Shown here piece after piece: positions 17,734 to 20,955 of a DNA stretch of 64,000 nt. Source of the stretch: an uncultured Chloroflexia bacterium (GTDB lineage: Bacteria; Chloroflexota; Anaerolineae; CG2-30-64-16); assembly GCA_963810095.1 (NCBI GenBank), contig CAWEMM010000012.1:448001-512000 (forward strand), read 5' to 3'. The notes beneath the pieces were generated by a model that had not been told where the DNA came from, made no database searches, and saw only the letters and a list, made by a program, of their open reading frames with translations. A program made the translations under genes and the position numbers. The stretch's first letter is position 1. Each line of letters opens with the position of its first letter.

Positions 17734-18188
17734 TCGACGCGAACACCCGCCTCGTCACGACCCCCGACGCCCGACCCGCCGCTCAGGTCCGCTTTCGCGT
17801 CCGCTACTTCGAGACCGACGCGATGGGCATCGTCCATCACTCGGCCTACATCACGTGGTTCGAGGAGGGGCGCAGTGGTTTCACGAGAGCGATCGGCTAT
17901 CCGTATTCCCGGATGGAGCAGGAAGGCGTCAGCCTGGCCGTGGCCGAGGTCAGCGCGCGCTACCACCGTCCCGCCCGTTACGACGACGAGGTGGTGGTGC
18001 AAGCCGAGCTGACGGAGTTGGGCAGCCGGGGCATGACGTTCCGTTACGAGGTGCGGCGTGCGGAAGACGACGAGCTGCTGGTCACAGGCAGCTCCAAGCA
18101 TATCTCGGTGGACCCGCAGGGTCGGGTCACCAGGCTTGCGCCATCCCTGCGCCAGCTACTCGAAGAAAAGGTCAAGGCTGGACGCTGA
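17730..18188 (+). CDS. Acyl-CoA thioesterase (YbgC/4HBT hot-dog family)
   Basis: VRYFETDAMGIVHHSAY..WFE.GR, PARYDD; ATGA overlap with the pfk stop. Confidence 0.9.
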   Translation: MIDANTRLVTTPDARPAAQVRFRVRYFETDAMGIVHHSAYITWFEEGRSGFTRAIGYPYSRMEQEGVSLAVAEVSARYHRPARYDDEVVVQAELTELGSRGMTFRYEVRRAEDDELLVTGSSKHISVDPQGRVTRLAPSLRQLLEEKVKAGR

Positions 18189-18218
18189 CGGCCAGGGATA
18201 GATGGACCCGCATAACGC

Positions 18219-18251
18219 AGGAGCCCGGTTTCTGGCAGAAACCGGGCTCCT
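18219..18251. terminator. 16-bp perfect palindrome (repeat family C, GAAACCNGG core) between convergent genes
   Basis: aggagcccggtttctg-g-cagaaaccgggctcct. Confidence 0.7.
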
Positions 18252-18300
18252 TTCCTCATCATCTGTTCCGGGCAATCCAATCGGTTCAATCAGCGTTCCT

Positions 18301-18738
18301 TCATTCTTCGGATTCCTCAGTCTCTTCCGAATCGGGCGCGCGAGGGTCCCAACGCTCCACCGCATGCCGCTGCACGACGACGTTCCCGTCCGCCGTGCGG
18401 ATTTCGGCCGCGCCCAGGTCCCACCAGCCGACCTTGCCGCTGACCGTATCCCCATTCCACATTTGCAGGGTCAAGGGCCGGCCTTCCTGCATGGCGAAAA
18501 CAAACGCTCGATTCAGCGCCTTGCGCGGCCAATCGAGGCGCCAGCGCAGCTCATCAAATGGCACGCCGAAATAATCTGCCAACATGGCGATGGACGGATC
18601 GTCGCCAACGGCCCGGTAGCGCTGTTCCATGTACCGGTACAGACCCTTGGGCAACTCGGGCAGGGCGGCTTCGATCTCCGCGGGCGTAACCCCGCCCCGC
18701 TGGGCACGCAGCATCCGCAGGCGATCGCCGAGGCTCAT
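18301..18738 (-). CDS. XRE-type HTH plus Hfq/Sm-like domain fusion protein (short partner)
   Basis: N-terminus LGDRLRMLRAQRG...LADYFGVPFDEL (XRE); C-terminus GRPLTLQMWNGDTVSGKVGWWD...VVVQRHAVERWDP aligns by eye with Hfq [20 protein letters not shown]...MVYKHAISTVVP. Confidence 0.75.
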   Translation of the reverse strand: MSLGDRLRMLRAQRGGVTPAEIEAALPELPKGLYRYMEQRYRAVGDDPSIAMLADYFGVPFDELRWRLDWPRKALNRAFVFAMQEGRPLTLQMWNGDTVSGKVGWWDLGAAEIRTADGNVVVQRHAVERWDPRAPDSEETEESEE

Positions 18739-19577
18739 TGTACGTCTCCCGTGCCGTTCGACGTCACCACCATCTCCTGGGCAGCCGCCTCGCTTGTTGC
18801 CCCCGGGACCGTGCGATAGCTCACGATTGCCAGTTTGCTCAGGGTGACCTCGCTGCCGTCCCCCTGGCGCACGGTAATGTTATACGGCCCGAATCCCGCC
18901 ACCGGCCCATCGACGCTCGTCCCATCAAAGAGCACGAAGTGGAGGGGTGTACCTGCATCACGCACCCGCGTGAGGTACTGCATCTCGTACTGGTCGACGG
19001 CCTCGGGCAGGTACGCCCGGTGGCGGTCCGGTGTCGGCGTCGCGCGTATCTCCGCCTGCAACTGCACCAGCACCTGGCTGGCCTGCAACCGGTCGAACTG
19101 GTCGAGCGGCTTCCCGATTTCCTGCTCCACCGACGACCGCTCCTTGCCCAACCGCTGCAGAAGGTCGTTGATATGGGCCAACTGGCTGGCGCGGGCGGGA
19201 GCGGGCGGCTTTGCTTCAGAGGCGGGCCTGGGCGGACGCCCGGTGCGCGGGCGGGGCTGGCCTGCGGGCGGCTGCGGCCCTCCTGGCGGCGGTGGTCCCG
19301 CGGGGGCCGGCGGGCGGCTCGACAGCGGCGGCGGAGATTCGTGTCGCGTGTCCTGTCGCTCCAACTGGTTCGCACCGGGCCGGGGGTCGCAGCGCAAGCG
19401 CAGCTCGGATTCTTCGACGTAGAGGGCCTTGGCGAGTCGAGCCAGGTGCCGGGGATCAATCGAACGGGTCCCCGCTTCGTACTCCATGATCAGGCCGATG
19501 GGTAAGCCAGCACGGCTGGCGAGGGTGGCAACGCTGAGGCGCTTCTGTTCGCGCAATGCCCACAGGTTTTCAGACAT
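18735..19577 (-). CDS. XRE-type HTH, Pro-rich linker, helical motif and Hfq/Sm-like domain fusion protein (long partner)
   Basis: LWALREQKRLSVATLASRAG...YEAG...LARLAKAL (XRE); C-terminus EMQYLTRVRDAGTPLHFVLFDGTSVDGPVAGFGPYNI...LSKLAIVSY matches Hfq helix 1, Sm1 and Sm2; AAGGAG RBS before ATG at 19577. Confidence 0.78.
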   Translation of the reverse strand: MSENLWALREQKRLSVATLASRAGLPIGLIMEYEAGTRSIDPRHLARLAKALYVEESELRLRCDPRPGANQLERQDTRHESPPPLSSRPPAPAGPPPPGGPQPPAGQPRPRTGRPPRPASEAKPPAPARASQLAHINDLLQRLGKERSSVEQEIGKPLDQFDRLQASQVLVQLQAEIRATPTPDRHRAYLPEAVDQYEMQYLTRVRDAGTPLHFVLFDGTSVDGPVAGFGPYNITVRQGDGSEVTLSKLAIVSYRTVPGATSEAAAQEMVVTSNGTGDVQ

Positions 19578-19777
19578 AGGGGTCTCCTTTGCTGGAGCTC
19601 GCAAATGCTGAGCGCGAGCTCATGCTCTCCTTTAAACTAAGCCCAACAAAAACGCAGGACAGTAGCGCGTTATACCTTTGACGTAGCCCGGGGCCGCACC
19701 ACAAGGCACGAAGACAAGAGGGAGCAGGGGCTCAATCATGAGTGCGGTGACTTAGTTCGTGTCTAGGCGAGTGTTGA

Positions 19778-20397
19778 CTAACCCTGGCCATCGATCGGCG
19801 GCAGGGGCGGGAGGCGGTCGAGGCCTTCCAGGCCGAAGTACTGGAGGAATTGCAGGGTGGTGCCGTAGAGGAACGGCCGGCCCGGTTGTTCGAGCCGGCC
19901 CACAGGTTCGACGAGCGCACGGGCGAGCAGCGTTTTCAGCACGCCGTCACAATTGACGCCCCGGATCGCCTCGATGTCGCCGCGGGTCAGCGGCTGGCGG
20001 TAGGCGATGACGGCCAGCGTCTCCAGCGCGGCGGTGGAGAGCTTCGTACTGAGGTCCAGGCCAAGAAACTTCTCGATGTACGCGGCCGCCTCGGGCGCCG
20101 TCGTCACATGCACCCGGTCGGCCCGGCGAATGACGCGGAGCCCGCGGCGTTCGCCCGCGTATCGCCCCGCAAGCGTCTCGAGCGCGGCCTGGATCACATC
20201 CTCGCCTGCGTCAAGCACCTGCGCCAGCCGCGCGATCGGAATGGGCGCCGGTGCGACGAACAGCAGAGCTTCGATGAGCGCGGGCACATCCAGTGCGGGC
20301 ACGTCGGGCGCGGCACGTCGGGTGCCGTGACCGAGATCGCGAGGGGCGCCGAGGTTACTTCGGTGTCCGTCTCGCCGCCTTGCGTTTCGATCGTCAC
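19778..20397 (-). CDS. scpB: SMC-Scp condensin subunit ScpB (1-nt frameshift near 20310)
   Basis: IEALLFVA, LSTAALETLAVIAYRQPLTRGDIEAIRGV, PGRPFLYGTT..FL.YFGL; GTG at 20397 overlaps the upstream stop; one base is missing in an APDVP tandem repeat. Confidence 0.9.
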
Positions 20398-20955
20398 CCG
20401 GCGCCGTCCGTGTAAGGCGCGTGGTCGATGTGCACCTGGATCTTGCCAAGCTGCAAGCCCATGCGCTCCGTAATCACTTCTTTCGCGACGGAGACGATCT
20501 CGTCGGTCTTCATCGGCACGTCGATCTCGGGCCGGGTCTGCACTTCAAGCCGCACATTCACCTGCTTGCCCCCGCCCCACACGTACGGCTCGACGCTCAC
20601 AACATCGGCCAACTGGTCGATGTGCCATGCCAGGCGCCGCGGCGACAGAGTCGGTGGTTACGGAGGCCTGGCTGCCGGTCTCTGTCACCACCCGCACCGC
20701 GCGGGGCCGGCGTCGCTTGATCTGCTGCCAGAGCAGTGGGAGGACCACCAGGATCGCCACCACGGCGAGCCCCACCCGGCCCAACGCGTACAGCAGCGGC
20801 TGGTTCGCCTGCAGTGTCTGCACCCAGCCGGCGGCCCGCGCAAAGGCCGCGGAAATGGACTGCAAGGTTTGCGCCGGGAACAAGGCAAGCATCAGGCTCA
20901 GTGCAAGGAGCACGAGGAGCAGGATGATGACGACCAGCTTGTTGAAAACGTTCAT
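20394..20955 (-). CDS. Membrane-anchored Asp23/AmaP-like protein (frameshift near 20640)
   Basis: Two N-terminal TM helices, then a soluble domain (SVTTDSV...DVVSVEP...EIDVP.K..EI...MGL...V.I); joins ORFs 20545-21207 and 20394-20612. Confidence 0.6.

Follow-up and report, generated by a model that had tools for sequence, protein, structure and literature searches.

A coupled pair of helix-turn-helix proteins with Hfq-fold Sm domains in Chloroflexota

In a 64,000-nucleotide stretch of contig CAWEMM010000012.1 from an uncultured Chloroflexia bacterium (assembly GCA_963810095.1, positions 448,001 to 512,000; hereafter the window), two adjacent genes on the reverse strand each encode a helix-turn-helix (HTH) domain of the XRE type at the N-terminus and an Hfq-fold Sm domain at the C-terminus. 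The two genes, called here the long and the short gene after the length of their products, overlap by four nucleotides, are kept together in related genomes and lie downstream of scpB, which encodes a subunit of the SMC-ScpAB condensin (Table 1). An initial annotation, made from the DNA letters alone, had singled them out as a coupled tandem of XRE-HTH and Hfq-like fusion proteins. The occurrence of paired HTH and Hfq-fold genes is real and goes far beyond chance, and the feature is both conserved and uncharacterised.

Hfq, an RNA chaperone, is known as a stand-alone homohexamer, and rings of mixed Sm subunits count as eukaryotic. With a conserved bacterial pair of such domains, diverged from each other, each fused to a DNA-binding domain and probably encoded in one operon with a condensin subunit, the Sm family would reach into the control of transcription or of the nucleoid. 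The pair would also be a natural system in which to study the origin of hetero-oligomeric Sm rings, and would explain what replaces Hfq in Chloroflexota. Both proteins are small and expected to be easy to express, and their stoichiometry, structure and nucleic-acid preference are directly testable.

Table 1. Features of the locus, in window coordinates (aa, amino acids; pI, isoelectric point).
Feature	Position	Strand	Description
Long gene	18735..19577	-	280 aa (P0001), stop at 18735-18737; XRE HTH, Pro-rich basic linker, helical mid domain, Hfq-fold Sm domain
XRE-type HTH, long protein aa 1-62	19392..19577	-	Basic, median pI 9.5; near-invariant in the family
Pro-rich basic linker, long protein aa 63-127	19197..19391	-	Disordered; median pI 11.6; proline 23-38% (7 sampled members)
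Three-helix mid domain, long protein aa 128-182	19032..19196	-	Helices 130-143, 147-154, 163-179; resembles Red-beta C-terminal domain
Hfq-fold Sm domain, long protein aa 190-258	18804..19010	-	Acidic, median pI 4.7, net charge -3; Sm2 S-K-L-A, with K248, L249 and A250 invariant
ATGA stop/start overlap	18735..18738	-	Joins the long-gene stop to the short-gene start
Short gene	18301..18738	-	145 aa (P0002), ATG at 18738-18736, stop at 18301-18303; XRE-like HTH, Hfq-fold Sm domain, acidic tail
XRE-like HTH, short protein aa 1-70	18529..18738	-	Slightly acidic, median pI 5.3; under the Pfam cut-off
Hfq-fold Sm domain, short protein aa 71-133	18340..18528	-	Mildly basic, median pI 8.9, net charge +1; invariant W-W-D-L-G-A and Q-R-H-A
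Acidic low-complexity tail, short protein aa 134-145	18304..18339	-	7 D/E, 0 K/R; family about 6-7 acidic, about 0 basic residues
scpB (SMC-ScpAB condensin subunit)	19778..20299	-	Directly upstream of the pair; PF04079, E 3.9e-53
Conserved leader, about 100 nucleotides, between scpB and the long gene	19578..19680	-	Conserved block 19660-19676, invariant GAG/CTC motifs (alignment A3)
Covarying 8-bp hairpin	19595..19621	-	GAGCTCGC, 11-nucleotide loop, GCGAGCTC; ends six nucleotides before the Shine-Dalgarno sequence

Hfq-fold and helix-turn-helix domains

Taken singly, the two sequences do not reach the curated Hfq families. The long protein matches PF17209 (Hfq) with an E-value of 0.15 and 12.1 bits against a cut-off of 27, and the short protein matches PF21979 (Hfq_1, the cyanobacterial type) with an E-value of 0.003 and 18.1 bits against 27, as well as NF047718 with 15.7 bits against a cut-off of 52. 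In the PDB, the Hfq entry 6gwk was found with E-values of 0.33 (long) and 0.026 (short). As single-sequence searches remain below the threshold for Hfq, family profiles were needed to attain significance. Relatives at E ≤ 0.001 numbered 616 out of 659 candidates for the short protein and 247 out of 4892 for the long one, and from the best 120 relatives per search 40 members of the short family (set A1) and 40 of the long family (set A2) were picked by hand across the identity range.

With these profiles, the match to solved Hfq structures becomes significant: A1 finds 6gwk with an E-value of 3.4e-5, together with about 30 further Hfq chains among the matches listed, and A2 finds Bacillus subtilis Hfq (3ahu) with an E-value of 0.004. 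Searched one by one at E ≤ 0.01, all 40 members of A1 match Hfq_1 (best 1.5e-7) and 18 of them match Hfq, which is also matched by 8 of the 40 members of A2 (best 9.8e-5). Public annotation already tags some relatives as ‘Hfq-like protein’ or ‘sRNA-binding regulator protein Hfq’, and the ESM Atlas holds a 167-member cluster named ‘Hfq related/Helix-turn-helix domain-containing protein’ that is commonest in Chloroflexota. An exhaustive HMMER search of 1.84 billion cluster representatives with the A1 profile returned 58 clusters at E ≤ 0.001. The two Sm domains also align with each other (hhalign E-value 5.2e-5, 20% identity), and the remainder of the two proteins does not.

The predicted structures point in the same direction. 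In the AlphaFold models, both Sm domains consist of a helix followed by a five-stranded bent sheet, and are for the most part predicted with a local distance difference test score (pLDDT) above 90. The long protein as a whole (pLDDT 78.8) is modelled as an HTH domain at residues 1-60, disorder at 65-125, three helices at 130-179, a further helix at 192-208 and five strands at 211-256, and the short protein (pLDDT 85.9) as six helices and then five strands. Foldseek searches of the PDB placed Hfq at the top for both models with a probability of 1.00. The match to 6gwk has an E-value of 1.6e-5 for the long model (template modelling score on the target 0.74-0.92, root-mean-square deviation [rmsd] 0.7-0.9 Å) and of 2.2e-4 for the short model (0.67-0.84). 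By VIA, the best Sm matches were 6gwk for the long protein (Z 11.7, rmsd 1.4, 63 residues aligned) and 1kq1 for the short one (Z 9.1, rmsd 1.5, 60 aligned). For the long model, Hfq chains lead the matches listed (Z 10.9-11.7), well above other Sm-fold matches. The suggestion in the initial annotation that the last 60 or so residues of both proteins are Hfq-like, with an Sm fold, is thus borne out by family profiles and structural models alike.

The proximal site of Hfq combines an aromatic residue, which stacks on uridine, with Lys, His and Gln. HMMER alignments show that Y-K-H-A of solved Hfq corresponds to S-K-L-A in the long protein (N/S-K-L-A in its family, in which K, L and A are invariant) and to Q-R-H-A in the short protein, where all four residues, including R124 and H125, are invariant; these are the substitutions that had been proposed. 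Neither subunit possesses the complete Sm2 motif, Y/F-K-H-A, together with the proximal-site aromatic. The position of the stacking aromatic, Phe in Hfq, is occupied by Y232 in the long protein and by an invariant glycine, G109, in the short one. In the long protein, moreover, the N-terminal Gln of Hfq is replaced by an invariant glutamate, E198, and the His by Leu, and the Lys is kept as K248. Each subunit therefore retains a different part of the Hfq proximal site.

By homology, the C-terminal domains fall within the Hfq branch of the Sm superfamily. They stay below the curated cut-offs, however, depart from the Sm2 motif in the long protein and lack the stand-alone architecture of Hfq, and are most aptly described as a new subfamily of Hfq-fold domains. 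Hfq itself is the best profile and structural match for both proteins, with a homologous Sm domain. The pair differs from it, however, in that the Sm domain sits behind an XRE HTH, in that two diverged and coupled paralogues take the place of one stand-alone gene, and in that the proximal-site positions are altered differently in each subunit, with an acidic Sm domain in the long one.

The N-terminal domain of the long protein (residues 7-60) exceeds the Pfam cut-offs for HTH_31 (27.4 bits against 27) and HTH_3 (26.2 against 23), an HTH is matched in all 40 members of A2, and the model superimposes on C.AhdI with a Z-score of 10.3 (rmsd 1.3, 58 aligned, 36% identity). In the short protein the HTH_31 match (residues 3-65) remains below the cut-off, with 20.6 bits against 27 and an E-value of 5.5e-4, and 20 of the 40 members of A1 have an HTH match at E ≤ 0.01. 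Residues 1-70 of its model nevertheless match XRE-type domains, namely HigA 3trb (Z 9.5, rmsd 3.8, 86 aligned), 2eby (Z 9.4, rmsd 1.9, 67 aligned), the N-terminal domain of CapH (Z 9.0, rmsd 2.3, 65 aligned) and P22 c2 (Z 8.7). The XRE-type HTH that the initial annotation assigned to both proteins is accordingly found in the long protein by cut-off and fold and in the short protein by fold alone (Z 8.7-9.5), as is membership of the XRE/Cro-C1 class (PF01381, PF13560). While the N-terminal domains share the fold of the regulators C.AhdI, DdrO, SinR, P22 c2, HigA and CapH, those proteins dimerise via helical or cupin-type C-terminal domains, and none among the matches listed carries an Hfq domain.

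Between its two conserved ends, the long protein contains a linker with pLDDT below 50 over residues 73-106 and a three-helix mid domain. The latter has no match in Pfam, PHROG or the Atlas. Structurally, it resembles C-terminal domains of Red-beta (8tfu_A, Z 9.1, rmsd 2.6, 62 aligned; 6m9k_D, Z 8.5, rmsd 1.4, 58 aligned), with Z-scores that lie within the range common for helical bundles. The Red-beta C-terminal domain binds lambda exonuclease and the acidic tail of SSB. That the mid domain might similarly dock the acidic tail of the short subunit is pure speculation. For this tail, phmmer returned no match in the PDB; the C-terminal tip of Escherichia coli Hfq is also acidic.

Coupling and distribution of the pair

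Both reverse-strand reading frames and the ATGA overlap reported in the initial annotation were verified, and all the peptides quoted there are present in the two proteins. For the long gene, ATG 19577 is preferred as the start to the upstream TTG 19604, because the N-termini of its family are conserved as M-[SA]-E-N-L-W and because an AGGAG (19584-19588, reverse strand) precedes this ATG by 7-11 nucleotides. The start of the short gene is fixed by M-S-L-G-D, which is invariant at the N-termini of its family. About 9-13 nucleotides upstream of this start, inside the long gene, lies a Shine-Dalgarno-like GGGAG run.

A survey in which one genome per species was scanned located the short gene at 69 loci, in every case in a record titled Chloroflexota, Anaerolineae, Anaerolineales, Caldilineae or Ardenticatenaceae. 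A long-family gene is present in 68 of them, the lone miss ending at a contig edge. Among the 68 intact loci, the junction is a four-nucleotide ATGA or GTGA overlap in 62, an eight-nucleotide overlap in two and a one-nucleotide overlap in one, with a gap of three nucleotides in two and of 1192 nucleotides in one. Within the order to which the window belongs, represented by 37 genomes of one family, both genes occur in the same 31 genomes, neither occurs in the same six, and no genome has only one. At both levels, then, the two genes are conserved together in related genomes, a point on which the initial annotation had been open to refutation.

The sole split pair (locus L040) is separated by a 377-residue reading frame at 485-1618 on the forward strand, which resembles a zinc alcohol dehydrogenase by eye; the separation could be an insertion or a misassembly. 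Among close relatives, P0012 and P0126 lie on one contig of 4625 nucleotides that NCBI labels ‘Nitrososphaerales archaeon’, and all other named relatives are Chloroflexota; the archaeal name probably stems from a mistake in binning or labelling.

Of 401 genomes sampled evenly across the phylum, six have the short gene; the pair therefore belongs to a few families. The distant carriers L072 and L073 retain the paired arrangement. In L073 (2402-3043, forward strand) the short-type protein has an RGG-rich tail, and its long-type partner is without the helical mid domain.

A check for a canonical hfq had also been proposed. In the window's own genome, which is 88.5% complete, only these two genes match PF17209 and PF21979. 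None of the 37 genomes of the order has a match above the PF17209 cut-off, and the weaker matches, at 14 places, all fall within the pair. In the phylum sample, PF17209 is matched at E ≤ 0.001 in five of the 401 genomes, four times at the long gene of a pair and once elsewhere; as a control, the same search was positive in 5 of 14 control genomes, E. coli and B. subtilis included. The single match outside a pair (genome G015) is a frame of 90 residues with an E-value of 6.4e-5, under the cut-off. Ordinary Hfq thus seems nearly absent from the Chloroflexota sampled, and by these profile searches the pair is the sole Hfq-type protein in the genomes of the order that carry it.

The gene order around the pair is likewise conserved. 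In 41 of the 69 loci, scpB lies upstream on the same strand, and where the distance was measured its stop codon is within 150 nucleotides of the long-gene start in 34 of 40 loci, and within 10 nucleotides or overlapping in 5 of 40.

Assembly and possible function

The reading that we favour, with about even confidence, is that the two proteins form a complex held together by their Sm domains, probably a mixed one, which presents XRE HTH domains and basic linkers to DNA and serves as a global regulator or nucleoid-associated factor tied to SMC-ScpAB. In the mechanism that we infer, which comprises heteromeric assembly, a DNA target, the condensin link and any RNA binding, the translationally coupled genes would probably form one operon with scpB, and their products would be made in a fixed proportion and work as one complex. 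The Sm domains would assemble into a ring, or an oligomer resembling one, of mixed composition, in which the acidic domain of the long subunit would pair with the mildly basic domain of the short one. This oligomer would then act as a scaffold holding several HTH domains and the basic Pro-rich linkers of the long subunit. The complex would have DNA as its main target, in the role of a multivalent transcription regulator or of a nucleoid-associated factor linked to SMC-ScpAB. Through its Q-R-H-A, a partly retained proximal face, the short subunit may also bind single-stranded nucleic acid, either as a ligand or as a second substrate.

The idea of a hetero-oligomeric Sm ring was already part of the initial annotation, and modelling lends it limited backing. 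A complex of three long Sm domains (residues 188-258) and three short ones (residues 70-136), modelled from our own unpaired alignments in a set-up unlike that of the tool's calibration, scored 0.56 (runs 0.61, 0.56 and 0.53), as against 0.00 for the best of three controls, and was graded by the tool as ‘weak support’. The runs share at least 60% of their contacts, and the partners have pLDDT of at least 80. In the calibration, the tool's mark was reached by 58 of 80 solved complexes and by 2 of 110 mismatched pairs, with scores of 0.60 or less in 7 of the 80 and in both of the mismatches that passed. Homo-rings or dimers are possible alternatives, though less probable ones. Because the 3+3 test is weak, the case for a hetero-complex rests mainly on genetics, namely strict coupling and co-occurrence, complemented by the opposite charges of the Sm domains and the different parts of the motif that they retain.

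A bolder version of this proposal is possible, albeit with the balance tilted against it. Here the pair would form a natural heteromeric Hfq ring, for example an alternating A3B3 hexamer, with six HTH arms and basic linkers. Together with SMC-ScpAB, this ring would organise the nucleoid or act as a global regulator. Composite pockets between subunits, with an aromatic residue and Lys from the long protein and Arg-His from the short one, would bind RNA or single-stranded DNA, so that the ring would be a DNA-RNA bridge and the phylum's sole Hfq-type system. The eukaryotic Sm/Lsm hetero-heptamers offer a parallel, as they too comprise several diverged Sm paralogues that, in the pair, could build one ring. 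Two metagenomic proteins of 174-178 residues found with the A1 profile, P0294 (E 5.2e-5) and P0297 (E 1.2e-4), contain two canonical Y-K-H-A Hfq domains in tandem. As natural pseudo-heteromers, they show that prokaryotes do have Hfq assemblies whose domains are not identical. Unlike in these tandem proteins, the Sm domains of the pair are on separate polypeptides, each with its own HTH.

Several observations weigh against a mixed, DNA-directed complex. The 3+3 score may reflect no more than likeness to solved Hfq hexamers, and the model does not distinguish a mixed ring from homo-rings. What links the pair to scpB is gene order only. The HTH of the short protein may fail to bind DNA, being slightly acidic and short of the Pfam cut-off. 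The covariance model of the leader finds no second copy in the genome, and hence no motif of a regulon. The six genomes of the order that lack both genes include three that are 92-97% complete, and the pair may therefore not be essential. Lastly, distant short-type relatives (L073, P0277, P0280 and P0288) end not in an acidic tail but in long Gly/Arg-rich ones (RGG, GGNFRDN-like), which hint at RNA, rather than DNA, as the substrate.

Among the alternatives, one is that the pair works in the manner of WYL factors, as (hetero)dimers whose Sm domains bind a single-stranded RNA or DNA ligand and thereby switch the HTH domains, as in PafBC, DriD, CapW and BrxR; we consider this unlikely. WYL factors, to which SiwR also belongs, do combine an HTH with an Sm fold in one chain, the Sm2-loop region serving as the binding site for single-stranded DNA or RNA as described in PMC6789036 and PMC10693628, and PafB and PafC are themselves a pair of paralogous subunits. 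The β4-β5 loop is also invariant in both of the present families (Q-R-H-A and K-L-A). Superposition of the short Sm model gives Z-scores of 8.1 with DriD (rmsd 2.3, 64 aligned) and 8.0 with PafBC (rmsd 1.6, 63 aligned), which is about one unit below its score with Hfq. Yet the profiles match Hfq families and solved Hfq, while no WYL family was found in Pfam at E ≤ 10 with whole proteins or single domains, or among the A1 and A2 members at E ≤ 0.01, and for the long model the Hfq chains stand well above the other Sm folds among the matches listed. Furthermore, WYL domains do not form Sm rings, according to the cited description of PafBC, and the 3+3 ring model of the pair did reach the tool's mark, if weakly.

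WYL factors are nonetheless the nearest characterised concept. The pair is not a member of their class, because it lacks a WYL family match, has an XRE rather than a winged HTH, and has no WCX domain; its Sm domain is of the Hfq type by sequence, and nothing further follows C-terminally. The statement that no characterised system has this architecture consequently needs to be narrowed. A literature search on HTH-Hfq fusions, including Hfq in Chloroflexota and Anaerolineae and with supplementary files outside its scope, found no paper, but the WYL factors have been characterised as HTH and Sm-fold proteins.

A second alternative, which we place at a similarly low probability, is that the proteins form two separate homohexameric rings that are co-expressed for distinct tasks, the long one, for instance, as a DNA-binding regulator and the short one as an RNA binder. 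All bacterial Hfq rings solved so far are, to our knowledge, homo-oligomeric, as are all the Hfq entries matched in the PDB; the two Sm domains share no more than a fifth of their residues and differ in charge, and the 3+3 modelling does not discriminate between the two arrangements. However, the overlap kept in nearly all loci and the exact coincidence of presence and absence fit an obligate partnership better than two independent rings. In addition, the opposite net charges of the Sm domains would favour mixed contacts more than they would disfavour like-with-like stacking.

It is still less probable, and in our view doubtful, that the pair is chiefly an RNA chaperone standing in for Hfq in a phylum without the ordinary protein, its HTH domains being accessory, for example as a tether to the nucleoid or to nascent transcripts. 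Such a replacement would suit the failure to find a canonical hfq in the order and in nearly all of the phylum sample, the R-H-A retained in the short subunit, the RGG-rich tails of the distant short-type relatives, which are typical of RNA binders, and the covarying hairpin in the pair's own leader. Against it stand the altered proximal-site positions, with Glu for Gln and Leu for His in the long subunit and Gly for the stacking aromatic in the short one, as well as the acidity of the long Sm domain. Conservation within the pair is also highest in the HTH of the long protein, and this speaks for a specific DNA target. A role on DNA and one on RNA do not exclude each other, since E. coli Hfq binds DNA and is counted among the nucleoid proteins, as stated in PMC7144919 and PMC12152304.

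An origin in a toxin-antitoxin system or prophage, considered in view of the XRE HTH and the HigA-like folds, was rejected, as the pair is single-copy, is syntenic with scpB and housekeeping genes, and occurs in most genomes of the order.

Leader and genomic neighbourhood

The setting of the pair is chromosomal and housekeeping, and not that of a mobile element. Between scpB and the long gene lies a conserved leader, which was aligned in 16 sequences of the window's clade (alignment A3). Its hairpin shows compensatory changes at five of eight pairs. Cells of the alignment are paired in 97.7% of cases, compared with 85.1% in shuffles, the observed covariation was reached in none of 500 shuffles, and controls in which the stem was slid along the alignment gave at most 47%. 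G-U pairs on the sense strand and the varying sequence of the stem speak for an RNA structure rather than a protein-specific DNA palindrome, and the hairpin may serve in autoregulation or stabilisation.

Searches for wider occurrence of the hairpin gave little. The leader covariance model (R1) has one match in its own genome, the leader itself, and among 72 loci it finds only the 15 training loci and, weakly, locus L020, with no sign of a wider RNA motif. No Rfam family was found within 18200-19900 at E ≤ 1, and scans of 18150-19850 for sigma-70 promoters and intrinsic terminators returned no site.

A different element is found in other clades. The exact palindrome GTAA-N10-TTAC occurs five times in 590 kb of loci, each time upstream of the long gene at a distance of about 76-97 nucleotides (L010, L016, L020, L027 and L028). 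With up to one mismatch, it is present in 11 of 60 upstream regions, as against about 1.8% of random 230-nucleotide windows, a comparison in which related loci are not independent. The palindrome, which is absent from the leader of this window, is a candidate operator in some clades.

Upstream of scpB lie two small reading frames on the reverse strand, one of 72 residues at 20397-20612 and a hydrophobic one of 136 residues at 20548-20955, which are kept in 35 and 32 of the 69 loci, respectively, and match no Pfam family. The labels ‘Asp23-like’ and ‘AmaP-like’ given to neighbours are guesses without a Pfam match, and PanB and PFK were named by eye only. Downstream, a 4HBT thioesterase gene is convergent with the pair in 26 of the 69 loci.

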